This document shows positions 3,485-24,582 of a stretch of DNA of 64,000 bases, piece after piece; within the stretch, counting starts at the first letter, position 1; every line of letters starts with the position of its first letter. The DNA is from a virus, in IMG/VR virus record IMGVR_UViG_3300042311_000920, positions 9,440 through 73,439 of that record. The stretch is one strand, 5' to 3'. The notes under the pieces are model-generated. The model worked only from the letters and a program-made list of their open reading frames with translations. It did no database searches and was not told the DNA's origin. The position numbers and the translations under genes were made by a program.

Positions 3485-3817
3485 ATGAAAGTAATGACAA
3501 AACATTCAGAGAATACCCAAACCGCCACTTGCGACAATAATTTGTTAGTAGATTATCATCCTTTTGACCTTAAGCCTCAACATAGAGATTTAGGAGGAAA
3601 AATACCTTTTGTTCATAATAAGACAGGTTTTACAGAATTGTATCCAAAAGCTTATAGTTATCCGGCCAAAAGATGCGAAAATTGCTTGTTTTATAGAGTA
3701 GAGAGAAGTACTACTCCTGTTGCTTACTATTGTCGAATTGGTATGTTTTCAAGTTATGTACAGGCAACCGCAAAAAGAGATGAAGACAAACCAACTGAAT
3801 GTCAGGTTTATTGGTAA
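3485..3817 (+). CDS. cassette hypothetical protein, Cys-rich C-terminus
   Basis: ATG in the loop of hairpin 3433-3546; reads through GTT at 3544. Confidence 0.6.
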   Translation: MKVMTKHSENTQTATCDNNLLVDYHPFDLKPQHRDLGGKIPFVHNKTGFTELYPKAYSYPAKRCENCLFYRVERSTTPVAYYCRIGMFSSYVQATAKRDEDKPTECQVYW

Positions 3818-3825
3818 TATCTACT

Positions 3826-3950
3826 AACGGATTGCGGTTTTGTCTTGTTGCCGAAAATACAAGACCAATTTTAATTTAAAAAACTATGAATACAAGTACA
3901 AAAAATTCATCAAATGAAGCCGAAAATGGCAATAAGTCAAAACCGCTGTT
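3826..3950. repeat. attC-like hairpin, close relative of 6085-6209
   Basis: Arms GCGGTTTTGTCTTGTTGCC / GGCAATAAGTCAAAACCGC; shares TTTGTCTTGTTGCCGAAAATACAAGACCAA with 6085-6209. Confidence 0.85.
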
Positions 3951-4119
3951 ATATGATGGCATTTTCGTAGGGCAGAAAGTTATTGATGAAGATTGCGATA
4001 AAGGAACGATAACAGAAATAGAAAATATCTACAATGTTTATGTAAAATATGATAATGGCGGAAGTGGTATTTCTTGTTTAAATGGTTGTTGCAACGACAG
4101 GTTGTATGCTATCATATAA
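3886..4119 (+). CDS. cassette hypothetical protein
   Basis: Starts in hairpin loop (…EAENGNKSKPLL); TAA lies in the terminal TAAC. Confidence 0.6.
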   Translation: MNTSTKNSSNEAENGNKSKPLLYDGIFVGQKVIDEDCDKGTITEIENIYNVYVKYDNGGSGISCLNGCCNDRLYAII

Positions 4120-4255
4120 CGTTTTCGGGCTTGGCGAAGTGCCGCTAACCGAAACTTAATTTTTAGCACTAACTGTCCTGCGGCATTTTGCCAAACCCGT
4201 GTTATGGGATAGTTTTAAAAACCTTTTAGGGTGGGCATTTAAAAACAAAATTAAA

Positions 4256-4651
4256 ATGGGAATGTACACAGAATTAATTTTTGGTGCTGAATTAAAAAAA
4301 GACACACCAAACCAAGTAATTGAAGCCTTGAAATATATGATAGGTGAAACAAAAGAAAAGCCAAGTGATTTCCCGTTACCTGATGGAAGATGTGAATGGT
4401 TATTTCAAGGCGGTAGCTATTACTTCGCTATCAATAATTCAGTAACAAAAATGTGGCTTGATGATATTGATAAGCAATGGCATATTAGCACACGTTCAAA
4501 TATTAAGAATTACGAAAGTGAAATTGAAACATTTTTAGACTGGATAAAGCCATACATTGACGGTGGTTCTGGTGGTAGAGATTTATATGCCATTACCATT
4601 TATGAAGAACAAGACACACCAACTCTTTATTATTTGCACGATGCTGATTAG
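4256..4651 (+). CDS. cassette hypothetical protein
   Basis: ATG 4256 inside cassette 4201-4691. Confidence 0.7.
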   Translation: MGMYTELIFGAELKKDTPNQVIEALKYMIGETKEKPSDFPLPDGRCEWLFQGGSYYFAINNSVTKMWLDDIDKQWHISTRSNIKNYESEIETFLDWIKPYIDGGSGGRDLYAITIYEEQDTPTLYYLHDAD

Positions 4652-4688
4652 TACGGTGCGGTGGGAAAAGGTTTTTAAAATTTCCCAT

Positions 4689-4754
4689 AACGTTTTGCAG
4701 ATACACGCTGTGAGCGTTGAATTGAGGGAGGGGAAATAGCGTGTATCTGCTGTT
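4689..4754. repeat. short attC-like hairpin
   Basis: AAC-GTTTT-GCAGATACACGCT...AGCGTGTATCTGC-T-GTT, perfect 13-bp arms. Confidence 0.85.
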
Positions 4755-4795
4755 ATGCCTTCGTTGCGGATTATTAACTTAAAAACTAAAATATA

Positions 4796-5122
4796 ATGGA
4801 TAAATTTCCAAAATTCATCATAGAAGATGATAAATTAATACTAATGAAAGTAACATATCATAAAGAGATTGCTACTGATTTAACTAAAGTAAAAGGCGGT
4901 GGTTGGTTTAAATATTTGCAACATACCGATATGTTTGTTTTTAGCGGAGAAAGCCACGATTTTGGCAAAGCTAAATTTGAAGATATAAAACAATGTGTTG
5001 CAAATTGCCAAGTATATTCAGATAACCGCCTTTACCGAAATATCAGTAATAATCACAATTTTGGATATGATACAGGAACAGAAATTATCGAATTGAAAAC
5101 GGAATGTAGCAATGAGGCATAA
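4796..5122 (+). CDS. cassette hypothetical protein
   Basis: Fills cassette 4752-5123. Confidence 0.7.
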   Translation: MDKFPKFIIEDDKLILMKVTYHKEIATDLTKVKGGGWFKYLQHTDMFVFSGESHDFGKAKFEDIKQCVANCQVYSDNRLYRNISNNHNFGYDTGTEIIELKTECSNEA

Positions 5123-5261
5123 CGTTTTGCAGCTATATGTCTGTTGCCAAAAGTAAAAAACAATGCTTCGATTAAGCACAAATAATCACAAGTACAAAAC
5201 AAATTATAAATCAAGCCGAATGTGGCAATAAGTCAAAACCGCTGTTATAAGTAGTACGGAT

Positions 5262-5402
5262 ATGAAAATCACAAAAGAATTTTTAGAAAAAATAAAAAAA
5301 GAAAACAATATATTGATATTTAAACTAGCGTCGATTGAGGGTAAAATACCAAAAGAAATACAAGACACATTACCTAAAGAAGTAATTACAAACAGATTGT
5401 AG
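5262..5402 (+). CDS. cassette small hypothetical protein (46 aa)
   Basis: MKITKEFLEK...NRL*, fills cassette 5244-5415; below ORF-track cutoff. Confidence 0.5.
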   Translation: MKITKEFLEKIKKENNILIFKLASIEGKIPKEIQDTLPKEVITNRL

Positions 5403-5557
5403 TATTACTTATAACGTTTTGCAGGTAGGCGATAGTGCCGCTTACCACAAACTTTAAATCAAAGCACTCAGGCTCATAGCGGCATTTTGCCTACCTGCTG
5501 TTAGGTGTCTGTAAAAAATAAATTTAGCGTGGGCTTAAACTTTAAATAACAAACAAA

Positions 5558-6043
5558 ATGGAATTACAAGAATTAATTGAAAAGAACAAACTGCAATTAC
5601 GCACACAAGAAGATATTTCTGCAAAGTTTGACGAATTGCAAAATTCAGGTGGCTTTATGGATTTTCGACCAGAAGTATTGATTAACTTTTTATCATTTGA
5701 AAACGCAAAGCCACATTTGAAAGAAGACTACGTGAAAGAAGTTGAAGCAGGAACAAAGCAATGGGAGCAACATACTACGGTTGAAAAGGCTGCCGAAGAG
5801 TTTTTGGACTATATGAAATTTGCTTGGGGTAAAGCCGAAGATGAACGTGGAATTTCAGCAAGCCGTTCAGTTCAAAAACTAGGAATGTGGCTTTGGATTA
5901 TGAACCGAGATGATTTGCGTAGAGTTATTGAGGATGATGATTTGTACAATCCTTATGGCGCACCTGCTTTAATTGAAGTTTGCAATCAAATGGGTATAAA
6001 AGTTCCAAACTCATTAATCGAATTTGCTAAGATAAAATGCTAA
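5558..6043 (+). CDS. cassette hypothetical protein
   Basis: 161-aa ORF in cassette 5500-6087. Confidence 0.75.
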   Translation: MELQELIEKNKLQLRTQEDISAKFDELQNSGGFMDFRPEVLINFLSFENAKPHLKEDYVKEVEAGTKQWEQHTTVEKAAEEFLDYMKFAWGKAEDERGISASRSVQKLGMWLWIMNRDDLRRVIEDDDLYNPYGAPALIEVCNQMGIKVPNSLIEFAKIKC

Positions 6044-6084
6044 TTATGTTGGGTGCGGTGGGAAATTTATTTTTTATTGCACCT

Positions 6085-6209
6085 AACATTCTCGTGGCTT
6101 TGTCTTGTTGCCGAAAATACAAGACCAACTTTAAATTTATCACTATGAAAAATGACACAAAACCAGCATTACCCGAAGCCGAAAACGGCAATAAGTCAAA
6201 ACCACTGTT
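6085..6209. repeat. attC-like hairpin, close relative of 3826-3950
   Basis: Arms GTGGCTTTGTCTTGTTGCC / GGCAATAAGTCAAAACCAC. Confidence 0.85.
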
Positions 6210-6582
6210 ACAAGCAGTGTTTTTCGCTCCTTATTTGCCTTATTCGGTAAAAATAGCTTATGATTATTTTGGAGATACACAAGAAATAGCAACATTAATA
6301 GGTGTTGAAGATAGAAATGGAGAAACTAGATTGCAAATTAATACTGGCGGAAGTGCTTTGTTAAAATATTGCAAACTTGTTTTAAAACCTTTTTCAGATT
6401 ATACTGAAATATTAGAAATAACAGATGAAATGAATGATTATGAAATCCAAATGATTGAAGATAATCCTGATTTAATAAAACGACTACCTTATGATGTGGT
6501 TGAAAAAATGTTTAAAAATCACATTGATGTTTTCGGACTTATTAATTTCGGTTTAGCCGTTTCAATTCACGATGTTGTGTAA
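6145..6582 (+). CDS. cassette hypothetical protein
   Basis: ATG 6145 in hairpin loop; N-terminus …EAENGNKSKPLL as in 3886. Confidence 0.65.
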   Translation: MKNDTKPALPEAENGNKSKPLLQAVFFAPYLPYSVKIAYDYFGDTQEIATLIGVEDRNGETRLQINTGGSALLKYCKLVLKPFSDYTEILEITDEMNDYEIQMIEDNPDLIKRLPYDVVEKMFKNHIDVFGLINFGLAVSIHDVV

Positions 6583-6735
6583 CATTGCTTGTAACGTTCC
6601 GCAACTACACGTCTGTTGCGTAAAAGTACAAAATTACCTTTCAGTTTAACACGGAATTGAAAGGTACAAAAACATCACTAAATTAATCACAAATCTAGCA
6701 ATAGCGTGTAATTGCTGTTATCAAATCGGTTTATT

Positions 6736-7062
6736 ATGAAAAGATTACCTGTTATACACGATGTAAAAGTTTGGAGTAGATTTTGGCAAAATCTAACTAT
6801 CGAAGAAAAAAACTTTGAATTAAGAAAATTAGATAGAGATTATCAAGTAAATGATTATTTACGATTGAATTTCTATTCAGAAGATTTAAAAGAAATTATA
6901 GAAACTGAAAAGCCTAAAATTGCTAAAATTCAATACATTTTAAAAGATGCTGAAATGTTTGGATTGCAAAAAGATTACGGAATATTATCCTTAAAATATT
7001 ATAGTTCTTTTTCTTTTCAAGAAAGGGTAGAGTTTTTGAAAACGCAAACCCAAACTGTTTGA
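6736..7062 (+). CDS. ASCH/PUA-like DUF3850 protein (cassette)
   Basis: HDVK...KNFELRKLDRDYQVNDYLRL matches the DUF3850/ASCH pattern. Confidence 0.7.
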   Translation: MKRLPVIHDVKVWSRFWQNLTIEEKNFELRKLDRDYQVNDYLRLNFYSEDLKEIIETEKPKIAKIQYILKDAEMFGLQKDYGILSLKYYSSFSFQERVEFLKTQTQTV

Positions 7063-7134
7063 TAACGGCTACGCATATACGCAGTAGCGGATTTAAAACA
7101 CAAAAGTTTAATTAACAAATAAAAGTAAAATAGA

Positions 7135-7476
7135 ATGAAAAAGTTTAAAATTAGCACAGTAGCCGCTATTGCCGTATATGCGATGTTAGCGGTTGTTTTT
7201 ACTTCTTGTGATGATGCAGGGGTAACTTCAAAAAGATTAAATGGCGATGAACAAAATTTGCCTGATGAACTGAAAGGACTAAAAATTTATTCAGTTTCGA
7301 CAGGTAATGGGAATTATGTAAAAGTTGCCGTTTTAGACGGTAAGATAAACTCAACAACTTACCAAGTAGGTAAAGTTCAAGAATCGACAGTAATAGTAAA
7401 TAAACAAAACGGCAAACTTATAGAGGTTAGCCAAATTTTGGTTGAAAACGACAGCGTGATTGTCTGCCGAAAATAA
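7135..7476 (+). CDS. putative lipoprotein (cassette)
   Basis: MKK + hydrophobic stretch + lipobox FTSC. Confidence 0.7.
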   Translation: MKKFKISTVAAIAVYAMLAVVFTSCDDAGVTSKRLNGDEQNLPDELKGLKIYSVSTGNGNYVKVAVLDGKINSTTYQVGKVQESTVIVNKQNGKLIEVSQILVENDSVIVCRK

Positions 7477-7548
7477 CCGCTAACGGTTCTCGGCTTTGTC
7501 GTCGTTGCGACTTATGAAAACTAATATTAATATTTTAAACTAAACGAA

Positions 7549-7833
7549 ATGAAAAACGATAATTCAACTAAACAAAGCAATGCGTCAAAACCGATGTTAG
7601 CGGAAGGCTGGATTTCTGTTAACGATAGAAGACCAAATGAAAATCAAACAGTATGGTGTTATTCAGAAAACACATTTAACATATTTGTAGGAGTTTATAT
7701 TTACCTTACAAATGAAGGTTGGTTTTGGGCTTCAAGTAACGGTTGCTTTTATATTGAAGAGGGAAAAATAATAACAGAATGTGAGATTGATGATTTTGAT
7801 GTTACACATTGGTTTCCCGCTCCAGTTCTGTAG
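7549..7833 (+). CDS. DUF551-like protein (cassette)
   Basis: WISVNDRRP...VTHWFPAP signature. Confidence 0.75.
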   Translation: MKNDNSTKQSNASKPMLAEGWISVNDRRPNENQTVWCYSENTFNIFVGVYIYLTNEGWFWASSNGCFYIEEGKIITECEIDDFDVTHWFPAPVL

Positions 7834-8060
7834 CTTTCCGCTAACGTTTCTCGGCTTTGCTTTGTTGCGGAAAAGTAAGCCAAAACTTTAGATTTAAAAA
7901 CAAAATTAACAAATACAAACCAAACATTCAGTTAAGCCTAAAACCGCAATAGAGCAAAACCGATGTTATAAGTAGCTTTTATTATGGATGAAATAATTTT
8001 ATGTTTAGGAATGATTGTTGGATTAATATTATTTATAATTAGTATAAAACAAGAGTAAAA

Positions 8061-8333
8061 ATGGAAAGTAAAATAGAATATTTTAATAGATACAGTGATA
8101 CGCATTTGCCTGATAAAATGAATAGATGGGCAAGAATAGCTGTATTTAAAAACATTAGAATTGCTTGGATAAGTAAACATAAGATTAAAGAGCAAGATAC
8201 ATTTTGTGTAACGTGCCATTTTCCAACTATGCAAAATGATACAGCAAACGAAAGTAAAGTTTTCTTTAGTTTAGAAGATGCAAAAGATTTTGTTTCTGAA
8301 AGATGGAATTTTTTTTTAACCGCAGTTTCTTAA
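8061..8333 (+). CDS. cassette hypothetical protein
   Basis: In cassette 7965-8346, preceded by a 24-aa hydrophobic mini-ORF at 7984-8058. Confidence 0.65.
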   Translation: MESKIEYFNRYSDTHLPDKMNRWARIAVFKNIRIAWISKHKIKEQDTFCVTCHFPTMQNDTANESKVFFSLEDAKDFVSERWNFFLTAVS

Positions 8334-8464
8334 AGTTACTTATAACGTTCCCACGATAGGGGCTGTTTGCCTATTTACAAAGTTGCTTTCGGCAAATAGC
8401 ACTTATCGTGTGTTGTGCGATGGTGCTTTTAAATACAAATATTAACCAATTAAATTACAATAAA

Positions 8465-8680
8465 ATGTCAAAACGAAAATACTCAAAAATGTCGGACAAA
8501 GTTGAAATAACACATTATGAATGTACTAATAGAAAGTGCAAGTGGCAAGGAACTAATAAACAAAAAGGAACTCAATATTTAGATAATGGATTTACGGAAT
8601 TGATTTGCCCTAAATGCTGTAATAATGAATTTTACGGATTACTTCCGTCTTATGTAGATTCTATTTCTGCGGTTTCGTAG
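8465..8680 (+). CDS. small Zn-ribbon-like protein (cassette)
   Basis: CTNRKC...CPKC; ATG 8465. Confidence 0.6.
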   Translation: MSKRKYSKMSDKVEITHYECTNRKCKWQGTNKQKGTQYLDNGFTELICPKCCNNEFYGLLPSYVDSISAVS

Positions 8681-8846
8681 CATCTCGCACAACGTATCGG
8701 TGCTATACGATGTGGCGGATTTTCGGCAGAAAGCCCAATACGAAGCACCACAGTTGAATTAAATAAAAATGTTTAATCGAAGCACGTCAGCCGCCATATT
8801 GTATAGCACTTGTTAGCGGATGCCGTTTCTTCACAACAATTTTAAA

Positions 8847-9083
8847 ATGGAATATAAAGCACAAGAACTCAAAAAAGATTTAATAACAAAGCGTTGCATT
8901 GATAACGATATGACAATGGATGAAGCCTGTAAAGAAATAGGAATTTCAAAAGCCACTTTGTCAAGGTTGGAAAAGTCTAAACTGCCAGATGTTGAAACAT
9001 TAGGTAAGGTTTGCACTTGGTTAGGAACTGAACCAAATAAATACTTTGTCATTATTCGTAAGCGTCAAGACGGTTTCCGCTAA
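8847..9083 (+). CDS. XRE-family HTH regulator (cassette)
   Basis: MTMDEACKEIGISKATLSRLEKSKLPDVETL. Confidence 0.85.
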   Translation: MEYKAQELKKDLITKRCIDNDMTMDEACKEIGISKATLSRLEKSKLPDVETLGKVCTWLGTEPNKYFVIIRKRQDGFR

Positions 9084-9255
9084 CCGTTCGGGGCTTGTAG
9101 CAGTAGGGGATTAGAAGCACTACTGTTCAACCTACCACAAAAGCTGATTAGAAGTACACAGCTTAATTAAAGCACTTCTGCCCCTATTGCTACAAACCCT
9201 TGTTAGCAGAAGTGGCGGTTAATTTACAAGGGTGTCAATTTTAAAACGTAAAAAA

Positions 9256-9558
9256 ATGATTAAAAATTCAGAACAACCAATCAGTCCAATGCCTTACCAA
9301 AATCAAGATGGCTCTATTCAACACGATGTTTATTTTGGATTAACTAAAAGAGAACATATTGCTATTGAAGCAATGAAGGGCTTTTTAGCAAACCCATCTG
9401 AAACAGAAGTAAGTTCAACTTATGTATTGGAAGCAATCGGGTTGCCAAAAGAAACTAAGTATTCATTTGATGAGCATTACACAAAGTATGTTTCACAAAT
9501 AGCAGTCAAATATGCCGATGCCTTATTAAAGGAATTGTCAATCGGAGACGGTCGGTAG
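9256..9558 (+). CDS. phage hypothetical protein with GLTKRE motif (cassette)
   Basis: GLTKREHIAIEAMKG...AVKYADALLKEL pattern common in phage small proteins. Confidence 0.7.
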   Translation: MIKNSEQPISPMPYQNQDGSIQHDVYFGLTKREHIAIEAMKGFLANPSETEVSSTYVLEAIGLPKETKYSFDEHYTKYVSQIAVKYADALLKELSIGDGR

Positions 9559-9628
9559 CCATTTCTGCTAACGGCTACGGCTATGTGCAGTAGCGGATTT
9601 AAAACACTAAACTTTAAATATAGAACGA

Positions 9629-10420
9629 ATGATGATAGTAGAACAAATTTTGAATAACGCACCGAACCCGCTATTGCATATAGCCGATGTTAGTGGCGGT
9701 GCTTTGTTCAATGCTGATTGTATGGATATTTTACCTCTTATTCCTAATAAATCGGTTCAACTTATTTTGGCTGATTTGCCTTACGGAACAACAAGTTGTG
9801 CGTGGGATTGTATTATTCCATTTGACAAACTTTGGGCTGAATATGGTAGAATAATAAAAGACAATGGTGCAATAGTTTTAACGGCTTCACAACCATTTAC
9901 AAGTGCCTTAGTAAACAGTAAAATTGAATGGTTTAAATATGCTTTAGTTTGGGAAAAAGAAAGACCAAGCAACCCTGCACACGCAAAGATTAGATTTATG
10001 AAATGGCACGAAGATATTTTGATTTTTTCACCTAATAAAGAAAAGTTTAATCCACAAAAAGAAAAACGATTAGAGCAAAATAAAAGGAATAACAAACAAG
10101 GTGTATTTCATAAATCTGATGCTTATGGAGAACAAACAATACCACAAGGCGATGGGATGGCTGATGAAAAGTATTTGAGTAGCATATTAAAGGTAAATGT
10201 TGAAAGAGGGTTGCACCCAACGCAAAAGCCGTTAAAACTATTTAAAACATTGATTAGTGCCTTTACGGATGAAAATGATTATGTACTTGATAATACAATG
10301 GGAGTAGGCACAACTTGTTTAGGAGCAAAAGAGTTGAACCGTTCCTTTATTGGAATTGAAAAAGAGGTAAAATATTATGATTTGGCAGTTGGTCGGGTGT
10401 TCGGTCAGCATTGCCACTAA
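9629..10420 (+). CDS. N6-adenine/N4-cytosine DNA methyltransferase, beta class (cassette)
   Basis: DLPY catalytic motif, HPTQKP, VLDNTMGVGTT SAM motif. Confidence 0.92.
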   Translation: MMIVEQILNNAPNPLLHIADVSGGALFNADCMDILPLIPNKSVQLILADLPYGTTSCAWDCIIPFDKLWAEYGRIIKDNGAIVLTASQPFTSALVNSKIEWFKYALVWEKERPSNPAHAKIRFMKWHEDILIFSPNKEKFNPQKEKRLEQNKRNNKQGVFHKSDAYGEQTIPQGDGMADEKYLSSILKVNVERGLHPTQKPLKLFKTLISAFTDENDYVLDNTMGVGTTCLGAKELNRSFIGIEKEVKYYDLAVGRVFGQHCH

Positions 10421-10574
10421 CGGTTTCGGGCTTGGCGAAGGTGGGCTTGTAGGATGCTCAATTTTAGCAGAATGTTTCTGCCCACTTTTGCCAAACCCGT
10501 GTTATGTGTAGTTGCGGTTGTTTATCAGGAACTTAAATTGAAAACGAATAAAAAAGAATTAGAAAAAAGAAGCG

Positions 10575-11276
10575 ATGGAATTAAATAAAATATATAACGA
10601 AGATTGCATTGAAGGTATGAAGAAAATACCATCTGCGAGTATTGATATGGTTCTAACTGACCCACCATATACATCTCCAACTGTTCACGCATTCGGAAGG
10701 CAAAAAGTAAACCGATTATCAGATTTAGCAATACAAGAATTTTACTTTGCTGAAATCAAAAAGGAATGGGAACGAATACTGAAACCCAATGCACCTGTTT
10801 TGATTTTCTGCGATGATATTTATAGTGCTGTTTTGATGGGTTTGTTTTACGAATGGCAACAAAAGAATTTAGTTATTTGGGATAAGGGTAGAATTGGAAT
10901 GGGAAACCCGTTTAGAAAACAGCACGAACTTGTATTTTATGCAAACAGAGGAAGTATTGAATTGAATAAAACCAATATGAGCCACATTCCTACTGTAATA
11001 AAAGAAACGCTAACAAAAGAACATCACGGAGCAGAAAAGCCAGTAAAACTATTGATGAAACTGATTGACGGACTTACAAAAGAAAATGCAACAGTTTTGG
11101 ATTGCTTTATGGGAAGTGGCTCAACTGCGATTGCTTGTTTAGAAACGAAAAGAAACTATATCGGTTTTGAACTTGATAAAAGCTATTATGAAACTTCACA
11201 AAATCGTATTTCTTCCTTGTGCGGTGGGCTTTTTTCTAATTCTTTTTCAACGGAAAGTTCAATTGAAACGGGATGA
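10575..11276 (+). CDS. N6/N4 DNA methyltransferase, beta class (cassette)
   Basis: TDPPY, HGAEKP, VLDCFMGSGST. Confidence 0.92.
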   Translation: MELNKIYNEDCIEGMKKIPSASIDMVLTDPPYTSPTVHAFGRQKVNRLSDLAIQEFYFAEIKKEWERILKPNAPVLIFCDDIYSAVLMGLFYEWQQKNLVIWDKGRIGMGNPFRKQHELVFYANRGSIELNKTNMSHIPTVIKETLTKEHHGAEKPVKLLMKLIDGLTKENATVLDCFMGSGSTAIACLETKRNYIGFELDKSYYETSQNRISSLCGGLFSNSFSTESSIETG

Positions 11277-11290
11277 TAGCAATTACACAT

Positions 11291-11337
11291 AACGTTTTGC
11301 AGATTGGCGGTCGTTTTAATGCCGCCAATGTGCTGTT
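11291..11337. repeat. minimal attC-like hairpin (47 bp)
   Basis: AAC-GTTTT-GCAGATTGGCGG...CCGCCAATGTGC-T-GTT. Confidence 0.8.
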
Positions 11338-11400
11338 ACAGGTAGTAGGGATTTCTACCACAAAACTTAATTAGAAGTACAAACAAAAAAGAATTTAAAA

Positions 11401-12276
11401 ATGAGCGAGGGCAAAAAAAGAAAAATTAAAGTATTATCATTATTCGATGGTATGAGTTGCGGACAAATAGCTTTAAACAAGCAAGGGATTGAATATGATG
11501 AATATTTTGCTTCTGAAATTGACAAAGAAGCTATAAAGGTAACTATGAAAAACTACCCAAACACAAAACAATTAGGTAGTATTACGGAACTAAAAGGAAT
11601 TGATTTGCCAAAAATAGATTTGCTATTTGGCGGAAGCCCTTGTCAAAGTTTTAGTAGAGCAGGAGATAACAGTGGATTTGACGGAAGTAGTAAATTGTTT
11701 TGGGAATTTGTAAGAGTTTTGAATGAAGTAGAACCTACTTACTTTTTACTTGAAAATGTAATTATGAAAAAAGAATGGGAAGATGTAATTACGGAAGCGT
11801 TAGGAGTGAAACCTATTGAGATTACAAGTGCTAAATTTGTACCACAAGCAAGACGAAGATTATATTGGACTAATATACCCAATGTAACGCAACCGAAACA
11901 ATCTGAATACACTGTTTTAGACTTTATTGATGGTGATGGGTTTCCGACAAGTTGCGGAATTGATAGAGTTTTTAAACGCAAAGAAATATTTAATACTTTG
12001 ACGGCAACTTATTGGAAAGGAATTAGAGGAAGTTCAAGACCAGCAGTAAGTATTAGAGAAGGATTTTTAGATGCGGACAGAGAAGCACACCGTATGCTAA
12101 CACCAACAGAATGTGAACGACTACAAACAGTACCTATTGGATATACGGATTGTGTTGCTAAAACAAATAGATATAAGATGCTTGGTAATGGTTGGACAGT
12201 TGATGTGATTGCTCATATTTTTTCTTTTTTAAAGGAGGGGAAATTTTTAAATTCTTTTTCTGACGAAAATGTTTAA
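11401..12276 (+). CDS. C5-cytosine DNA methyltransferase (cassette)
   Basis: LSLFDG, GGSPCQ, LLENV, QARRRLYW, RMLTPTECERLQ, LGNGW. Confidence 0.93.
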   Translation: MSEGKKRKIKVLSLFDGMSCGQIALNKQGIEYDEYFASEIDKEAIKVTMKNYPNTKQLGSITELKGIDLPKIDLLFGGSPCQSFSRAGDNSGFDGSSKLFWEFVRVLNEVEPTYFLLENVIMKKEWEDVITEALGVKPIEITSAKFVPQARRRLYWTNIPNVTQPKQSEYTVLDFIDGDGFPTSCGIDRVFKRKEIFNTLTATYWKGIRGSSRPAVSIREGFLDADREAHRMLTPTECERLQTVPIGYTDCVAKTNRYKMLGNGWTVDVIAHIFSFLKEGKFLNSFSDENV

Positions 12277-12377
12277 TCAAAGCACTTCACCGCTATTACC
12301 TGTAACGGTTCTCGGCTTGGCGAAGTTGCCGAACACAAAACTTCATTAGAATTACAAATGTTTAAATCAAAGATAGA

Positions 12378-13022
12378 ATGTCAAACGAAGCACAAAACGG
12401 CAATTTTGCCAAACCGATGTTAGCACCAGTACGGGTTTTAAATCTATACGCTGGAATTGGAGGAAACCGAAAACATTGGGAAAATGTAGAAGTAACTGCA
12501 ATAGAATACAACGAAGAAATTGCAAATGTTTACAAGAAATTACATCCAAACGATAATGTGATAGTTACTGATGCACACGATTATTTGGCTAAAAATTGGA
12601 GAGAGTTTGATTTTATATGGAGTTCGCCACCATGTCAAAGTCATAGCAAAGTAAGAATGATGGCAAGTAAAAGCGGAAGTTATGATGCTGTAATGCCTGA
12701 TATGAAATTGTGGAGTGAAATAATTTTTTTACAGAACTTTACTAAAAACACAGATATAAAGTTTGTAGTTGAAAATGTAAAGCCTTATTACGAACCATTT
12801 GTAAAACCAACTGCAAAACTTGGTAGGCATTTATTTTGGGCAAACTTTGAAATACCTGAAGCCGAAATAAAAGATGGATTAACCCACAATGAAAGAGGAA
12901 GTTCTGAAAAAGGTTATTTTGACTTACGAGAATATAAAATAAAACACAGAAAAGACCAAATAATTCGTAATTGCGTTGACCCAAATGTAGGACAATATGT
13001 TCTCGGTTGTGCAGTTTCGTAG
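12378..13022 (+). CDS. short C5-methyltransferase-like protein (cassette)
   Basis: LYAGIGG, SPPCQ, ENV; no obvious TRD or motifs IX-X. Confidence 0.85.
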   Translation: MSNEAQNGNFAKPMLAPVRVLNLYAGIGGNRKHWENVEVTAIEYNEEIANVYKKLHPNDNVIVTDAHDYLAKNWREFDFIWSSPPCQSHSKVRMMASKSGSYDAVMPDMKLWSEIIFLQNFTKNTDIKFVVENVKPYYEPFVKPTAKLGRHLFWANFEIPEAEIKDGLTHNERGSSEKGYFDLREYKIKHRKDQIIRNCVDPNVGQYVLGCAVS

Positions 13023-13066
13023 TATTGGTGCTAACTAATCGCTAATCGCTATAAAACCAAATCAAA

Positions 13067-14032: not shown

Positions 14033-15331
14033 ATGGCAACAATTAAATTTACCGTGCGAGGGAAGAAAAACCCGTCGCCCATCTACATCCGTTTTGCAGA
14101 GGGAAAAAATATAGACCTTCACGAAAAATCTGGACTTTATGTAAATCCAATTTTTTGGGACCAGAAAAAGCAACAGATCCGGAAAGTTCTCGAAGTAGCA
14201 AACAAAGACGATATCAATTCCAATCTTCGGAAACTTGAAATTTATTTGATTGATGAATTTAATCAATCATTTATGACCGGCCAAGTAATAAATAAGCAAT
14301 GGCTGTTGCAATCTATCCAAAAATTCTTTAATCGCCCTAAAAACGAAGAAAAACTACAAAATTTAAAGCATCACATTTATTTTTCAGATTACGCCCAACA
14401 CTGGATTGATAACAAGGCTAAAAAATTCAAAGTTGCCGCCAATAAATATATGGACGAAACAACGATAGGACATTATCAGCAAGTTTTGGATAACTTCAAA
14501 GATTTCGAAGGAAAAAACAAAGTAAAACTATGCGATTTAAGCAACTTAAAATTAGACGAGTTCTCTTTATACCTTTCAGATACTAAAAGCTATTCAGAAT
14601 CTACTAGCAAGCGTAAAGTTGGACGCGTTAAGTTCTTTTGCGCACGTGCCGAAAGCGACAATTTAGAAGTCAACAAACAATACAAAGAAAGAGTTTTCGT
14701 CAAAGAGCAAGAAATCGAATACAAGCAGCCTTATTTAAACGAAGATGAAATTAACAACATTTTTAAATTGAAACTAGAACCTAATTGTCCAATGGATCAT
14801 GTTCGAGATAATTTAATAATTGGATTATGGACTGGCTTAAGGGTGTCAGACTTTCTAACGAGATTAAACGTCTCCAATATTCAAGATGGTTTTATCAAAA
14901 TAAAAACAATGAAAACAAAAACATTTGTCAATATTCCGATACACTCACAAGTAGCTTTTATTTTGAATAAAAGAAACGGACAACTACCTAATAAAATATC
15001 AGAGCAAAAGTTTAACGACCACATAAAAACCTTGACGCAGATAGTAGGTATTGATGATTTAATGATTGGAGGAGTGATGAAAGTTGACGAAAAAACTAAA
15101 GTTAAAAGGAAAGTAATTGATACATATAAAAAGTGGGAGTTAATGACCTCTCACGTTGGGCGCAGATCATTTGCTACAAATTTGTTCGGAAAAGTATCTA
15201 ATAAAACCATTTGTGACGTATGCGGCTGGTCAAATGAAGATATGCTTTTTGCTTACAACAAAACCACGAACATGGAATCAGCGAATGTACTTAAGGATTA
15301 CTGGGATAAAAAATACGAATCAAAAATATAA
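14033..15331 (+). CDS. int: tyrosine recombinase / phage integrase (Bacteroidota type with arm-binding and SAM-like domains)
   Basis: TGLRVSD (R), KTMKT (K), SHVGRRSFATN (HxxR), CGWSNE, FAY (Y); 432 aa. Confidence 0.92.
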   Translation: MATIKFTVRGKKNPSPIYIRFAEGKNIDLHEKSGLYVNPIFWDQKKQQIRKVLEVANKDDINSNLRKLEIYLIDEFNQSFMTGQVINKQWLLQSIQKFFNRPKNEEKLQNLKHHIYFSDYAQHWIDNKAKKFKVAANKYMDETTIGHYQQVLDNFKDFEGKNKVKLCDLSNLKLDEFSLYLSDTKSYSESTSKRKVGRVKFFCARAESDNLEVNKQYKERVFVKEQEIEYKQPYLNEDEINNIFKLKLEPNCPMDHVRDNLIIGLWTGLRVSDFLTRLNVSNIQDGFIKIKTMKTKTFVNIPIHSQVAFILNKRNGQLPNKISEQKFNDHIKTLTQIVGIDDLMIGGVMKVDEKTKVKRKVIDTYKKWELMTSHVGRRSFATNLFGKVSNKTICDVCGWSNEDMLFAYNKTTNMESANVLKDYWDKKYESKI

Positions 15332-17518: not shown

Positions 17519-17519
17519 A

Positions 17520-19982: not shown

Positions 19983-19984
19983 CC

Positions 19985-20260: not shown

Positions 20261-20504
20261 AATGTATTCCGCACCCGTAGAGCAAGAAATAATCGACCGC
20301 TTAGCAAGTATAGGATTCGATCAATTAGAAGACAGCATCGAGGACGAACTAGAAGATTTCTGCATCATCATCAATGCCGAAGAAAAGCTCTTTTGGATTT
20401 CAGACCAAACCAATCTTGAAATGACCGATGAAATTTGCCAAGAAAGATACGACCAATCAATTTTACAAACCAATTTTAAAACCATATCATCATGGCTGAA
20501 TTAA
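20250..20504 (+). CDS. acidic hypothetical protein
   Basis: 84 aa, overlapping both neighbours. Confidence 0.6.
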   Translation: MENKMYSAPVEQEIIDRLASIGFDQLEDSIEDELEDFCIIINAEEKLFWISDQTNLEMTDEICQERYDQSILQTNFKTISSWLN

Positions 20505-21403: not shown

Positions 21404-21406
21404 TCA

Positions 21407-21850: not shown

Positions 21851-22007
21851 AAAACAATCTATCATTTTTAGAGTTCAGTCGCTACTTATACGGCTACAAC
21901 GTTTACAGTAAAAAAACAGAACAAGTAATCCCAAGGTATCAATTGTATTGGGCAGGCTACACGATCGAGAGAATCAAACAGAATTTTAACCTTAAGCCAA
22001 GAGTAAA

Positions 22008-22187
22008 ATGACAACTTACGGACAAATAGTTGACGGTAAAAGAATAACACTAAATGACTTTGAAAAACAAGTTCGAGAAGGCGTTTCTGGCATCGTAACT
22101 AACCTAACATCAGCGGAAATAGCCAAACGTTACCGTAAAGGCGAATCCGTGGATAATGCAGTGAGTTATTTTATAATGCACAAGTAA
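22008..22187 (+). CDS. small hypothetical protein (59 aa)
   Basis: MTTYGQIVDG...MHK*; its TAA forms the left boundary of array 2. Confidence 0.55.
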   Translation: MTTYGQIVDGKRITLNDFEKQVREGVSGIVTNLTSAEIAKRYRKGESVDNAVSYFIMHK

Positions 22188-22265
22188 CGTCCTGTGGCTT
22201 TGTCTAGTGGCGTTGAATTAAGACTAGACACAACAAAAATACACTAATTATTAAATTTAAAAATT

Positions 22266-22586
22266 ATGATTTCAGATAACACCCAATCCAAGCCATTAAA
22301 CAAAACGACTGTTAGCGGTTCGGTTACTGACAATATGACCTTTAAAGACGCTTTAAAGTCATTAGGAATAGAAGATTATGCTGAACGGATTTTTAATAGT
22401 AATTCACACGGAGAATTATTTCATATTCAACAGTATTTTACTTTAGCAAAGGTTCTAAAAGGAAATTCAGAGTGGTTTAGAGAATGGTTTGAAAAAGTTG
22501 TGAAATGGGCAGAAGAAAATTGGGAACGACCAGAATCAATTTTCCAACACATTAGTCAAATTTTAGTAGATAGTCGTTCTAACTGA
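22266..22586 (+). CDS. cassette hypothetical protein
   Basis: ATG in hairpin loop; an internal ATG is also possible. Confidence 0.65.
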   Translation: MISDNTQSKPLNKTTVSGSVTDNMTFKDALKSLGIEDYAERIFNSNSHGELFHIQQYFTLAKVLKGNSEWFREWFEKVVKWAEENWERPESIFQHISQILVDSRSN

Positions 22587-22874
22587 CGGCTAACTGATTT
22601 ACCTGATTACAACGGGAAAAGAGCTTTTGGATTAGGTTCGGTAGACGAAATTTGGATTATAGATGATTTTGAATATTGTACGGAATATCCTGATTTACCG
22701 ATGCGATAACATTACCACTAACGTTTTGCAACTTGCATTAGTGCCTTGCAAACAAGCGAGTAGTTTCGGATTAAGACTAAACACAACAAAGAAAAACAAA
22801 ATATAAATTAATAACCAAGCCAAAGGCATTGATGCAAATTGCTGTTATCACTTCGGCTTTTTATTCCAAAAAAT

Positions 22875-23117
22875 ATGACAACAGATGAAATGCTTATCGA
22901 AATTGTAAATTACAATTACAAATCCGCTGGTTTTCCTTATGTATTTTTAGACTACTCACAATCTTTTAAATATTGGGCAATTACTTGGCGAAATCCAGTT
23001 GATTTTTCAAATGAAAAACAAACTAATGCACCAACTCCAAATGAGGCGTGTAAAAAAGCACTCGAATTTATAAAAAGCAATCCGAGTATTTTTAGCCGTT
23101 CCAACCAAGCTGAGTGA
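22875..23117 (+). CDS. cassette hypothetical protein
   Basis: ATG 22875 within cassette 22844-23121. Confidence 0.65.
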   Translation: MTTDEMLIEIVNYNYKSAGFPYVFLDYSQSFKYWAITWRNPVDFSNEKQTNAPTPNEACKKALEFIKSNPSIFSRSNQAE

Positions 23118-23278
23118 TAACGTTTCCACGCTTGGCGAAGGTGGCGATTTTAACCACAAATACTGATGCGTAGAACGAAATTTGAATATAGCAATAATTG
23201 TCAAGCGGAGTACTGCACCGCCACTTTTGCCAAACGTGTGTTATGCGTTCGGCTTTTTTGGAACTTAAAAATTTGATT

Positions 23279-23668
23279 ATGAAAGAAAGTATTATTAGAT
23301 GTCCAATTTGCAGTAAGATTACAGCGTTGGAAAAAAATGGACGAACTCAAAAAATAGAGCAAGTTCACGGAATTTGTTGGGATAAAATTGGCTATTCGAT
23401 TGGTGGGTGGGGAAGCCGAAGAGATTTTATTCACGGATTTTCTGGCGAAGTTTGTAATGATTGTTTCACAGCTTTAAAAACAAAAATCAATGAATTTAAA
23501 GAAGTTGTTAACCAAAGAACAAACTCCTGCGAAGAAGGGGTATGTATTTACAAAACATCAAAAGACAAATCAACAGGGGATAACCTGTCTGACCTGCAAC
23601 AAGACGAGTTACAATCCAAACGACATAAAACACCTTTATTGCGGTTGCTGTCATCGTTTTCACGATAG
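23279..23668 (+). CDS. cassette Zn-finger-like protein
   Basis: CPIC...CNDC; ATG 23279. Confidence 0.55.
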   Translation: MKESIIRCPICSKITALEKNGRTQKIEQVHGICWDKIGYSIGGWGSRRDFIHGFSGEVCNDCFTALKTKINEFKEVVNQRTNSCEEGVCIYKTSKDKSTGDNLSDLQQDELQSKRHKTPLLRLLSSFSR

Positions 23669-23681
23669 CGTTGTAAGCTGA
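23490..23681 (+). CDS. overlapping small Zn-finger protein
   Basis: CLTC-NKTSYNPND-IKHLYCGCCH; stop falls in the cassette end. Confidence 0.5.
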   Translation: MNLKKLLTKEQTPAKKGYVFTKHQKTNQQGITCLTCNKTSYNPNDIKHLYCGCCHRFHDSVVS

Positions 23682-23748
23682 CGCATAACGTTTCGCGGCT
23701 ACACGAGGTTTGGGACTAAATTAGCAATAATTTTTAAATTTAATACAA

Positions 23749-24582
23749 ATGATAGAGATACAAAACCAACTTGAAATTAAGCCTGAAACGGCAATAGCAC
23801 AAAACCGATGTTACCAGCAGTGTTTTTTGTCGGACAATTTGGATTTAATGAAAACAATAGAAAGCAATACCATTGATTTGATTTACTGCGATATTCTTTA
23901 CGGAACTGGCAGAAACTTTAGCGACTACCAAGACTTAAAACCGATTAGAAGTGAAATTGAAGCACATTATTTACCACGATTAAAAGAAATGTATCGAATA
24001 CTAAAACCAACAGGGAGTATTTATTTACAAATGGATACAAGAATAAACCATTGGATGCGAATTTTAATGGATGATATTTTTGGCTATGATAGAATGTTGA
24101 ATGAAATTGTAGTTTGTATTAGTAAAGGAAATCAAACAAACAAACACTTTGCAAAAAGGCACGATATTTTACTTTATTACACAAAAACAAAAGAATGGAT
24201 TTATAATTTAGATGCTGTTTCAAAAGAAAATCCTGAACATAAAAGGTATAAATACCAAGATGAAAAAGGAATGTATAGATGGCATATTGAAAGCATCAAA
24301 GATTATAAAATGTATCTTAAAAAACAAAATATAAACGATGTTTGGAGTGATGTAGGAATTGTTCAAGGCAACTCAATAGAAAATACAGGTTATTCTACAC
24401 AAAAACCAAAATCATTGATTGAACGAATTATAAAAGCAAGTAGTAACGAAGGAGATTTAGTTGCTGATTTCTATGCTGGAAGTTTTACAACAGCAGTGGT
24501 TTGTAAAGAACTAAATAGGAATTTTATCGGATGCGATATTAATCCTTTGGCTTTGGAGATTTCAAAACAACGATTGGCTTAA
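23749..24582 (+). CDS. N6/N4 DNA methyltransferase, beta class (cassette)
   Basis: DLIYCDILY (variant DPPY), YSTQKP, VADFYAGSFTT. Confidence 0.88.
   Translation: MIEIQNQLEIKPETAIAQNRCYQQCFLSDNLDLMKTIESNTIDLIYCDILYGTGRNFSDYQDLKPIRSEIEAHYLPRLKEMYRILKPTGSIYLQMDTRINHWMRILMDDIFGYDRMLNEIVVCISKGNQTNKHFAKRHDILLYYTKTKEWIYNLDAVSKENPEHKRYKYQDEKGMYRWHIESIKDYKMYLKKQNINDVWSDVGIVQGNSIENTGYSTQKPKSLIERIIKASSNEGDLVADFYAGSFTTAVVCKELNRNFIGCDINPLALEISKQRLA

Follow-up and report, generated by a model that had tools for sequence, protein, structure and literature searches.

Probable integron-type cassettes in a lake phage, with the recombination hairpin ahead of the gene and often holding its start

When a gene lies between two recombination hairpins, with which of them does it travel? 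The question is raised by a 73-kb phage genome from a lake-water assembly, of which we analysed 64,000 nt (the window, meaning that whole stretch). A sequence-only reading had noticed ORFs that start inside the upstream hairpin and had proposed that the mobile unit is this hairpin plus the gene downstream of it. Our results make it likely that the phage carries swappable single-gene cassettes whose recombination hairpin often holds the gene start, the reverse of the bacterial integron layout.

Layout of the arrays

The genome contains two integron-type cassette arrays, with 19 and 5 cassettes (Table 1). On the coding strand, a cassette consists of an imperfect hairpin of 49-130 nt (TAAC...GTTA), one ORF, and a short flank, ending in TAA, whose sequence is reverse-complementary to the bases following GTTA. 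Each array opens with a hairpin and closes with an ORF and a TAAC that has no hairpin, and the sequence after the terminal TAAC of array 2 resembles that ending array 1. In 19 of the 22 window cassettes, the 6 nt after GTTA are complementary (match of at least 5/6) to the last 6 nt ahead of the following TAAC; the hairpin's own upstream flank shows the same complementarity in 1 of 24. Such complementary flanks round each ORF are as expected of a circular intermediate. Single cassettes have features of their own: the gene behind H4 (ORF 4256-4651) has a homologue in Cellulophaga phage phi17:1 that lacks a hairpin there, H6 combines a loop and right arm from the H3 family with a left arm from another family, and the C5 methyltransferase ORF 11401-12276 (H18) has a 14-nt inverted repeat on both sides.

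Table 1. Coordinates (in the window) of hairpins, cassette ORFs, array ends and the nearby recombinase
Feature	Position	Strand	Remarks
Hairpin H1	2989..3118	+	opens array 1; abuts TAA stop of gene 2536-2991; model score 53.3 bits
H1 cassette ORF	about 3132/3207-3434	+	
Hairpin H2	3432..3547	+	ORF 3485-3817, start in loop
Hairpin H3	3825..3951	+	leader ..GNKSKPLL; ORF 3886-4119, start in loop
Hairpin H4	4117..4204	+	ORF 4256-4651, start 3' of hairpin
Hairpin H5	4688..4755	+	short, 68 nt; ORF 4796-5122
Hairpin H6	5120..5247	+	chimeric, poorly paired; ORF 5262-5402
Hairpin H7	5412..5503	+	ORF 5558-6043
Hairpin H8	6084..6210	+	leader ..GNKSKPLL; ORF 6145-6582, start in loop
Hairpin H9	6592..6720	+	ORF 6736-7062
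Hairpin H10	7063..7188	+	ORF 7135-7476, start in loop
Hairpin H11	7481..7599	+	ORF 7549-7833, start in loop; second ATG 7594 overlaps GTTA
Hairpin H12	7842..7968	+	ORF 8061-8333
Hairpin H13	8343..8415	+	3' end GTTG; ORF 8420/8465-8680
Hairpin H14	8690..8815	+	5' end CAAC; ORF 8820/8847-9083
Hairpin H15	9081..9205	+	ORF 9256-9558
Hairpin H16	9569..9692	+	N6/N4 DNA methyltransferase ORF 9629-10420, start in loop
Hairpin H17	10418..10504	+	methyltransferase ORF 10575-11276
Hairpin H18	11290..11338	+	49 nt; C5 methyltransferase ORF 11401-12276
Hairpin H19	12303..12422	+	short C5-like methyltransferase ORF 12378 (or 12417)-13022; closes array 1
Array 1 end	13024..13055	+	flank complementary to post-H19 sequence, then TAAC (13032-13035), then non-hairpin sequence
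Tyrosine recombinase	14033..15331	+	432 aa; arm-binding, SAM_5 and catalytic domains; 1 kb after array 1
Hairpin H20	22185..22314	+	opens array 2; abuts TAA stop of gene 22008-22187
H20 cassette ORF	22266-22586	+	start in loop; alternative ATG 22335
Hairpin H21	22719..22847	+	ORF 22875-23117
Hairpin H22	23118..23243	+	ORF 23243/23279-23668
Hairpin H23	23686..23813	+	weakly paired; N6/N4 methyltransferase ORF 23749-24582, start in loop
Hairpin H24	24592..24717	+	short C5-like methyltransferase ORF 24732-25346; closes array 2
Array 2 end	25337..25367	+	complementary flank, then TAAC (25343-25346), then non-hairpin sequence

Hairpin fold

Structure and covariation were observed directly: the 24 window hairpins share one consensus fold of 23 pairs, with compensatory changes at 16 of these. 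A 5-nt bulge in the 5' arm, together with C.A and G.T positions that are conserved, sets the fold apart from the sites of classical integrons, and the loops are A-rich (48% A). Canonical attC sites feature a spacer and extrahelical bases. A covariance model built from the 24 hairpins found no extra site across the 73-kb genome, and its best score on the minus strand was 20 bits; in 30 related virus loci it matched 60 further sites, of which 59 lie on the strand of the genes.

Linkage and junctions

From a set of about 200 related hairpins on virus contigs, we paired similar ones between different contigs and compared the 100 nt downstream and the 100 nt upstream of them. At the stricter threshold, 221 pairs shared the downstream sequence only, 134 neither, 9 both and 0 the upstream sequence only; for a second family of 985 pairs, the respective numbers were 5, 976, 4 and 0, these counts coming mostly from two families and the H19 family having been collected via its downstream gene. 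The check proposed by the sequence-only reading, whether a given ORF co-occurs with the same upstream or the same downstream hairpin, thus favours the upstream one (221 vs. 0 pairs). Among the 134 pairs sharing only the hairpin, at least 8 of the 10 nt after GTTA matched in 54, but at least 8 of the 10 nt before TAAC in only 5 (background about 3%).

Comparison of related loci points to TAAC as the junction. The unit that opens with the TAAC of H19 and runs to the one behind the short methyltransferase is 92-97% identical in the window and in seven loci (L003, L004, L005, L007, L008, L012 and L013), with unrelated sequence on either side of it. Homology to H10 begins exactly at TAAC in L033 and L034, and homology spans TAAC to the next TAAC in L115/L121, L123/L132 and L134/L143. 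The pair of H16 and its methyltransferase occurs in about 20 virus contigs; its end (flank and TAAC) is identical in 14 of 17 copies and is followed by at least 11 different continuations, and the upstream 12-mers are all different. Homology bounded by TAAC, together with the downstream linkage, places the crossover at the AAC side of the coding strand, as had been supposed for cassettes carrying their own start; this is the classical integron junction read on the opposite strand.

Linkage with the gene downstream is not absolute. The same methyltransferase follows a different hairpin in L011 (gene 91% identical) and in L014-L018 (about 86%), and L027 combines a hairpin 93% identical with a gene just 74-78% identical. 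Bodies 89-97% identical have hairpins only 65-90% identical, which suggests that hairpins are also exchanged or diverge faster, and in cassettes that are otherwise identical the loop centre is a mosaic. In one related contig, the leader found behind H12 in the window stands behind an H24-like hairpin, which implies a break near GTTA. Among the 24 of 272 loose ends listed for four lake metagenomes, contigs stop or branch off on the TAAC side (12303, 11289 and about 10407-10410) but also on the GTTA side (12423, 4200 and 8411).

Translation starts

In nine ORFs (3485, 3886, 6145, 7135, 7549, 9629, 12378, 22266 and 23749), the first ATG of the cassette's main open frame lies in the loop, 44-65 nt 5' of the GTTA end (H2, H3, H8, H10, H11, H16, H19, H20 and H23), and all nine read on through the right arm and GTT as had been described; right arm, GTTA and flank together encode the first 15-25 residues. 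The N-termini quoted earlier are present (NGNKSKPLL in 3886 and 6145, SKPML in 7549, AKPML in 12378, HIADVS in 9629), and all three frames across GTT are indeed used, with the G third in its codon in six ORFs, first in 9629 and 22266, and second in 23749. Early ATGs are missing from several bodies, again in agreement with the sequence-only reading: the loop ATG is the sole ATG of 3886, and the next ATG lies 95 codons away in 6145, 86 in 3485, 31 in 9629 and 33 in 23749. The frames of 3485 and 6145 extend further upstream (TTG at 3437 and ATG at 6037, respectively), and 12378, 7549 and 22266 could really start at a further ATG located at GTTA or shortly past it. The first ATG of the remaining 15 of 24 cassettes lies 0-93 nt past the hairpin end, and ATG 23243 (H22 cassette) overlaps the final base of GTTA.

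A loop ATG whose frame stays open for at least 60 nt beyond GTTA was found in 10 of the 24 window hairpins. Shuffling the loops gave 2.7 +/- 1.5 such hairpins (500 shuffles; maximum 8, never 10), and a loop ATG with an open frame was found in 0/24 on the minus strand. In the window and the 30 related loci together, 38 of 65 hairpins of at least 90 nt have a loop ATG with an open frame.

The hairpin-coded N-termini (lipoprotein signal peptide, methyltransferase N-terminus and 22-residue leader) are conserved as protein. The H10 right arm encodes the hydrophobic core of the signal peptide of ORF 7135-7476, which is common to five cassettes whose mature parts have no detectable likeness. NCBIfam methyltransferase profiles match from residue 26 of 9629 and residue 23 of 23749, 5' of the next ATG. 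The loop ATG is in frame in 19/19 unique H16 sequences, in which variable sites per codon position number 2/2/6 (loop) and 12/3/22 (body). In the H3/H8 family, an in-frame ORF extends at least 30 codons beyond GTTA at 42 of 47 sites, the other five being out of frame or without ATG; the 22-residue leader is joined in frame to 38 distinct bodies, 32 of which lack an ATG within the first 20 codons. A TTTAAA-like motif precedes 7/9 loop starts, 7/15 other starts and 21/275 other ATGs by 3-28 nt, and GenBank CDS starts fall inside model matches in Flavobacterium phage sniff9-1 and Polaribacter phage P12002S. All this is consistent with translation initiation at the loop ATG. As for the earlier suggestion that shuffling swaps N-termini and switches genes by frame, the same N-terminus does occur on many unrelated bodies, but there is no evidence of frame change, since a TAAC junction never parts the hairpin from its body.

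Polarity and recombinases

In the phages, 57 of 60 cassettes have the gene sense to the hairpin. In chromosomal arrays of Bacteroidota with sites of this family, the gene is antisense to it in 19 of 24 cassettes; these arrays keep the classical polarity of gene, then site. The phage cassette is an integron-type cassette viewed from the other strand, with its gene inverted, and involves no new kind of crossover.

In related phages, a Xer-like recombinase (not IntI) follows the terminal TAAC at a distance of 40-65 nt in 7/7 occurrences on 6 contigs, and the chromosomal arrays adjoin homologues of it. This enzyme has 265 aa and scores 140.5 bits against the IntI model (cut-off 265), which matches it in two stretches; the two-stretch match and the length suggest that it may lack the IntI-specific insertion. 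No Xer-like recombinase was found in this phage genome, and no integrase of the IntI or Xer-like kind beside the window arrays; the arrays are thus orphans that would need the enzyme in trans. The tyrosine recombinase after array 1 resembles neither IntI nor the Xer-like enzyme of the related phages.

Proposed and alternative explanations

The explanation that we consider probable is that of hairpin-first integron-type cassettes with their junction in TAAC, every cassette supplying its own translation start in the loop or just past the hairpin, and the hairpin travelling with the downstream gene. Cassettes would join within the four bases TAAC, so that the hairpin would move with the gene 3' of it. 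The coding strand would be the counterpart of the strand that is folded and cleaved in classical attC, the genes being inverted relative to the site, and the likely enzyme would be the compact Xer-like tyrosine recombinase of the related phages.

Under classical polarity, the ORF would instead move with the downstream hairpin by crossover at G|TTA, and upstream loop ATGs would provide exchangeable N-termini and frame-based on/off switching. We judge this quite unlikely, even though it accommodates one leader on 38 bodies, one signal peptide on five unrelated mature proteins, the H24-like hairpin with an H12-type leader, the GTTA-side loose ends (12423, 4200, 8411) and the other hairpin on the same gene in L011: upstream-only sharing was seen in 0/364 and 0/985 similar-hairpin pairs, homology of hairpin-only pairs is not above background left of TAAC and is present right of GTTA in 40%, both arrays open with a hairpin and close without one, and 5/47 H3/H8 sites out of frame or without ATG are too few for free assortment over three frames. 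Regulatory hairpins (translation-initiation platforms or terminators) like the PeSLs of T4-type phages, with genes shuffled by homologous recombination at repeats rather than site-specifically, are improbable given breakpoints at one four-base word with unrelated sequence beyond, flanks as for a circular intermediate, a recombinase abutting the terminal TAAC in all relatives' occurrences with homologues beside chromosomal arrays, and 0 Bacteroidetes -7 promoter motifs in the hairpins against 1.7 expected. IntI1 is also reported to have recombined a predicted attC of Polaribacter phage P12002L (PMC9892861), probably of the same family judging by model matches in the sister phage P12002S only. 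What speaks for regulatory hairpins is the PeSL precedent (PMC2839356, PMC4122927), the absence of a matching recombinase from this genome, the chimeric or poorly paired H6 and H23, the mosaic loop centres and the metagenome contig breaks at both sides.

There is very little probability, in our view, that the loop ATGs are unused and the open right-arm frames a by-product of A-rich loops, with internal or non-ATG starts. A stable stem might impede ribosomes, 15/24 cassettes start past the hairpin, and three loop-start ORFs (12378, 7549 and 22266) offer another ATG near GTTA; however, the signal peptide requires the loop start, conserved methyltransferase motifs precede any other ATG, most bodies behind the 22-residue leader (32/38) lack an early ATG, the H16 ATG stays in frame despite changes close by, open frames are in clear excess over shuffled loops, and the TTTAAA-like motif marks loop starts more often than other starts or other ATGs.

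Comparison with known systems

The hairpin-first cassettes share with classical and sedentary chromosomal integrons the single-gene arrays, the imperfect AAC...GTT hairpins with a variable loop between, the junction at the AAC/GTT triplet, the complementary flanks bracketing cassettes and, in relatives, a tyrosine recombinase beside a non-hairpin terminal site. They differ in that the phage gene is inverted relative to the site, the hairpin being 5' of the ORF and partly translated, and in that the relatives' recombinase is Xer-like and below IntI cut-offs. PeSLs (PMC2839356, PMC4122927) likewise are repeated stem-loops that flank small accessory genes in hyperplastic regions and mark shuffling breakpoints, but presumably use homologous recombination and carry promoters; the phage hairpins yielded no promoter motif and have a junction of one four-base word, flanks that are cassette-specific inverted repeats and, in relatives, an associated recombinase.

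A start codon within the recombination site itself has a parallel in ORF-11/ORF-18 of attI1 and in short ORFs of attC, where the start codon is reported to span the crossover and to aid translation of a cassette without its own initiation region (PMC8876359). These short ORFs stand apart from the cassette gene and, according to the same account, work through translational coupling (at attI) or reinitiation, whereas the phage cassette protein is fused in frame to a leader coded by the site of the same cassette.

The closest paper that we found is on phage CALINs, attC clusters without integrase (Qi et al. 2023, PMC9892861). It describes attC-like sites round orphan DNA methyltransferases in virulent phages, e.g., Polaribacter phage P12002L, with two sites per phage and "divergent directions"; its passages on these sites give no account of in-site gene starts, reversed cassette polarity or a Xer-like recombinase. 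Our covariance model matches P12002S four to five times round two methyltransferases.

Hairpin architecture and detection

We found 24 plus-strand elements by reading the region and aligning ends picked by eye, nineteen in array 1 (H1–H19) and five in array 2 (H20–H24). All 24 attC-like sites (attC is the cassette site of integrons) fit one design in the alignment. TAAC and about 5 unpaired bases lead into a 4-bp stem; past a single unpaired position, a second stem (about 14 bp, with a G.T pair in 22/24 sites) leads to a loop of very variable length, and the element closes with TGTTA. AAC and TGTT are invariant (24/24), and site length ranges from 49 to 130 nt. The RNAalifold consensus fold has 23 pairs with compensatory changes at 16, a 5-nt bulge on the 5′ arm, and a single unpaired C/A position. 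Canonical attC has an unpaired central spacer and two extrahelical bases that determine strand choice.

A covariance model made from the 24-site alignment returned only these 24 sites from the entire phage genome (top minus-strand score: 20 bits), and none of the Rfam families reached threshold within the window. Exact-arm search, constrained folding of every AAC...GTT pair, and anchored arm alignment missed most sites or gave many false ones; the covariance model was used instead. H6 and H23 pair poorly (−9 kcal/mol) and look like chimeras that join the left arm of one family to the loop and right arm of another. The C5 methyltransferase cassette sits behind a minimal hairpin of 49 nt and is bracketed by a 14-nt inverted repeat and pieces resembling the H15 loop. 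One related virus contig (L089) carries hairpin arrays in opposite, facing orientations.

Coordinates of array features in the window and in related loci (L-numbers: other virus contigs or Bacteroidota chromosomes)
Source	Position	Strand	Feature	Remark
Window	2989-12422	+	Array 1, nineteen hairpins	
Window	22185-24717	+	Array 2, five hairpins	
Window	2989-2991		TAA of TAAC	Stop of resident gene before array
Window	22185-22187		TAA of TAAC	Stop of resident gene before array
Window	3432-3434		TAA of TAAC	Stop of preceding ORF
Window	4117-4119		TAA of TAAC	Stop of preceding ORF
Window	5120-5122		TAA of TAAC	Stop of preceding ORF
Window	9081-9083		TAA of TAAC	Stop of preceding ORF
Window	10418-10420		TAA of TAAC	Stop of preceding ORF
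Window	3825-3951	+	H3	
Window	5120-5247	+	H6	Poorly paired
Window	23686-23813	+	H23	Poorly paired
Window	3485		Loop start	
Window	3886		Loop start	TTTAAA-like word upstream
Window	6145		Loop start	TTTAAA-like word upstream
Window	7135		Loop start	
Window	7549		Loop start	
Window	9629		Loop start	TTTAAA-like word upstream
Window	12378		Loop start	
Window	22266		Loop start	
Window	23749		Loop start	
Window	4256		Cassette start	TTTAAA-like word upstream
Window	5558		Cassette start	TTTAAA-like word upstream
Window	23243		Cassette start	Overlaps final base of GTTA
Window	11339-12306		C5 methyltransferase cassette	
Window	25807-27122		Two HNH-type endonuclease genes	NUMOD4/HNH_3; PHROG HNH families
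L089	879-1871	+	Hairpin array	
L089	3368-6213	-	Hairpin array	
L005	10675-10809		Xer-like recombinase remnant	45 codons
L210	7665-8792		Chromosomal recombinase homologue	
L191	7680-8804		Chromosomal recombinase homologue	

Association of hairpins with downstream genes

The last array 1 cassette (a short methyltransferase behind H19) retrieved 30 virus loci. Across eight distinct contexts, the unit is 92–97% identical from the TAAC opening H19 to the TAAC 13 nt past the stop codon, and both outer sides are unrelated. For the H16 cassette, 14 of 17 copies close with the same conserved flank and TAAC. Beyond this TAAC, the sequence continues in at least 11 different ways, and the upstream 12-mers are all different. 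H10 is common to the related loci L033 and L034 from exactly TAAC, and three further cassettes show homology from TAAC to TAAC.

We then compared the 100-nt flanks of similar hairpins in different loci, using 201 model-defined hairpins. Flank similarity was downstream only in 221 pairs, on neither side in 134, on both sides in 9, and upstream only in 0; the corresponding counts for the H3/H8 family were 5, 976, 4, and 0. The downstream gene was the query for the H19 set, which is biased; the hairpin itself was the query for the H16/H10 and H3/H8 sets, which are not. In the 134 pairs sharing only the hairpin, the ten nucleotides after GTTA match in 54 and the ten before TAAC in 5, the latter being background. 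The sequence-only reading had assigned each hairpin to its downstream gene, with each cassette carrying its own translation start, and this holds on both the pair counts and the TAAC-to-TAAC homology. ORFs moving with the downstream hairpin were not seen in this co-occurrence check. ORF 7135 had three loci, of which L033 and L034 were informative and L035 aligned without shared hairpin homology; relatives of ORF 6145 were not found among virus contigs. A reverse association test, in which flanks were clustered first, was dropped because A-rich flanks chained into large clusters.

The association has exceptions. The same methyltransferase has other hairpins upstream in L011 and L014–L018, a 93% identical hairpin precedes a gene only 74–78% identical in L027, and on one contig an H24-like hairpin is joined to the leader found behind H12 in the window. 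Metagenome contigs diverge both at TAAC and at GTTA, with loose ends on both hairpin sides among those listed; only loose ends were used, since these contigs are short and the shorter side of their joints spans 19–40 nt inside repeats. Together with loop mosaics and the chimeras, these cases point to exchange or conversion between hairpins as well. The boundary at TAAC is sharp; the one on the right-hand side is not.

In two loci of the H3 family (L115 and L121), the bodies are 97% identical and the hairpin arms identical, and the middle of the loop-coded leader differs at about one-third of positions, so that the loop centre looks like a separate exchange or hypervariable patch. The H16 methyltransferase cassettes of L071 and L072 are interrupted by stop codons at 150 and 133 codons, respectively, and may be decayed.

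Probable translation starts in the hairpin loop

For each hairpin, we took the frame covering most of the cassette body and located its first ATG. This ATG lies in the loop of H2, H3, H8, H10, H11, H16, H19, H20, and H23, exactly the nine ORFs that had been proposed from sequence alone to start there; the N-termini quoted for them were correct, as was the use of all three phases across GTT. In the remaining 15 cassettes, the first ATG lies 0–93 nt past the hairpin end. A loop ATG with its frame open for 60 nt past GTTA occurs in 10/24 hairpins, compared with 2.7 ± 1.5 after loop shuffling (10 was reached in none of 500 shuffles) and zero on the minus strand. The loop-ATG pattern is therefore real and well above chance.

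Several lines of comparison suggest that the loop ATGs are used in vivo. The first residues of ORF 7135 form a typical lipoprotein signal peptide, and the right arm of the hairpin encodes its hydrophobic core. A DNA pattern for the H10 left arm retrieved 31 virus loci, in which the same hairpin-coded signal peptide stands on five different cassettes with mature parts unrelated by BLASTP (E above 0.09). The same pattern retrieved the H16 subtype, found ahead of the N6/N4 methyltransferase; here the loop ATG is in frame in all 19 unique sequences, even where the neighbouring codon is altered, and variable sites at the first, second, and third codon positions number 2/2/6 in the loop-coded part, 0/0/1 in the arm, and 12/3/22 in the body. 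Curated methyltransferase profiles start matching at residue 26 of ORF 9629 and residue 23 of ORF 23749, before any alternative ATG. The H3/H8 right-arm pattern retrieved 48 loci, and 42/47 sites have an ATG, 63–84 nt (mostly 63–66) ahead of the GTTA end, that opens a frame of at least 30 codons into the body. One 22-residue H3/H8 leader is joined to 38 distinct bodies; in 32 of these, the first 20 codons contain no ATG. In two cultured phages, Flavobacterium phage vB_FspS_sniff9-1 and Polaribacter phage P12002S, GenBank CDS starts fall within model matches. For ORFs 12378, 7549, and 22266, the real start is possibly a second ATG at or near GTTA. RNA runs contained at most 0.11 of the sampled words of the stretch.

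A TTTAAA-like word lies 3–28 nt upstream of 7/9 loop starts and 7/15 ordinary starts (14/24 together), compared with 21 of the 275 remaining array ATGs, and may serve as a signal for translation or transcription.

Array ends, recombinases, and polarity

In 19/22 window cassettes and 56/64 overall, the hexamer behind GTTA and the hexamer ahead of the next TAAC are complementary, compared with 1/24 for a hairpin's own upstream flank. Such complementary flanks would be the signature of a site split when a circular cassette is linearised. Each array opens with a hairpin abutting the stop codon of a resident gene and closes with an ORF, its flank, TAAC, and then nonhairpin sequence; the two ends are alike and lack a recombinase. 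In five cassettes, the preceding ORF likewise ends on the TAA of TAAC.

In relatives, a 265-aa tyrosine recombinase begins 40–65 nt past the terminal TAAC, preceded by a TAYTATAT-like word, in 7/7 occurrences on six contigs (one being a remnant). On the contig shared by L005 and L099, the remnant and the same terminal site follow the first array, and a full recombinase gene follows the second. On the archaeal XerA/integron-integrase model, the 265-aa enzyme reaches 180 bits; on the model of the integron integrase IntI (cut-off: 265), it reaches 140.5 bits, in two stretches. Among solved structures, the nearest are of XerA, and VchIntIA ranks third. On these comparisons, the array recombinase of related phages is Xer-like. 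No homologue of it was found in the window, and IntI is likewise absent from the 73-kb genome. The only tyrosine recombinase of the window (432 aa) scores 24 bits on a Xer model and does not match TIGR02249; a search in the flanks of 30 related loci did not return it, which says nothing either way about a role in the arrays. PF00589 matched in 2/5 related contigs. For the orphan arrays of this phage, we infer both the acting enzyme and the cut strand.

Many Bacteroidota genomes encode homologues about 40% identical to the array recombinase; these have an additional N-terminal domain and score 204–214 bits on the IntI model, below its cut-off. In Flavobacteriia, the chromosomal homologues are about 376–385 aa long (L210, L191, and similar loci), and the extra domain, absent from the 265-aa phage enzymes, has about 110 residues. 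Arrays called by the covariance model adjoin these chromosomal genes, and 46/46 minus-strand matches are located 3′ of the recombinase gene. Relative to the hairpin model, ORFs between hairpins are antisense in 19/24 chromosomal units, the classical order of gene then site, and sense in 57/60 phage cassettes. This opposite polarity suggests that the phage cassette is the same kind of unit with its gene turned round. The crossover at the AAC side, as read on the coding strand, is the classical junction between G and TT on the other strand.

Comparison with known cassette systems

Several features are those of integrons: an imperfect inverted repeat with AAC...GTT ends and a variable centre bounds each cassette, and cassettes carry one site each, are joined at a conserved triplet, and have flanks that close into one site in the circle. 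Two features differ. The site does not lie 3′ of its ORF, the hairpin being linked to the downstream gene (221 pairs vs. 0), and the window has no integrase of the IntI subfamily, marked by its specific insertion, beside an array, the enzyme of relatives and the chromosomal homologues falling below the IntI cut-off. Integrons also have attI, a nonhairpin primary site located between the integrase and the first cassette; the TAAC and TAYTATAT-like word ahead of the recombinase in relatives may be a counterpart. With 24 sites (called by our own covariance model) in two arrays and neither IntI nor a Xer-like enzyme in the 73-kb genome, the arrays qualify as CALINs, attC clusters lacking an integrase. 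The promoter-stem-loop (PeSL) cassettes of T4-type phages have a promoter plus a terminator stem-loop in each repeat, and the promoter part is not matched in the window hairpins. TAnnTTTG is the Bacteroidetes −7 promoter element; it occurs 0 times in the hairpins or the following 60 nt, compared with 1.7 expected.

CALINs have been described in virulent phages. In Polaribacter phage P12002L, two attC sites surround two methyltransferases, and IntI1 is reported to have recombined one of these sites, delivered as its bottom strand (PMC9892861). The passages of that paper available to us do not include starts inside sites, reversed polarity, or a Xer-like enzyme. ORF-11/ORF-18 in attI1 and short ORFs in attC aid translation by coupling (PMC8876359); of what our literature search returned, these come closest to the start signals seen here. 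No paper from that search describes phage genes with starts inside attC-like sites, phage cassettes of reversed polarity, or arrays of this kind with a Xer-like recombinase.

In the textbook integron, a cassette is a promoterless gene with its attC behind it, and a platform promoter drives expression. In this phage, a site of that kind precedes the gene and seems to be translated itself. We tentatively read the integron-like site of Flavobacteriia phages as a portable expression head, for which the host cassette system is run backwards with a Xer-like enzyme, and we rate this joint reading at slightly below even. The folded site would carry a start codon and a leader peptide, which in one family would be a complete lipoprotein export signal, and any captured body would become translatable, and in the lipoprotein family exported, without signals of its own. 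Genes would be inverted relative to the site, and the recombinase would be Xer-like rather than IntI. Translation of the site would mean that one recombination site can face structural and coding constraint simultaneously, and, since each cassette has its own start, position in the array should not shut down the translation of distal cassettes. The site-first, translated layout would also account for the starts that gene callers place within "intergenic repeats" of Flavobacterium, Polaribacter, and related phages, and integron-finding tools may call such sites in conflicting directions for the same cause.

The genome and its cargo

The window is 64 kb of one 73,439-bp contig. Its minus strand carries large structural genes, for which a near-identity search of phage records returned no match; relatives in phage records at the DNA level are limited to methyltransferase genes and one small gene (Flavobacterium, Cellulophaga, and Polaribacter phages). 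Public runs containing the stretch are lake-water and other metagenomes. The source is therefore a metagenome-assembled phage of a Flavobacteriia-type host. Orphan DNA methyltransferases are abundant in the cargo, with six in this window, so the arrays probably serve as an exchangeable toolkit against restriction. Two HNH-type endonuclease genes lie just past array 2.
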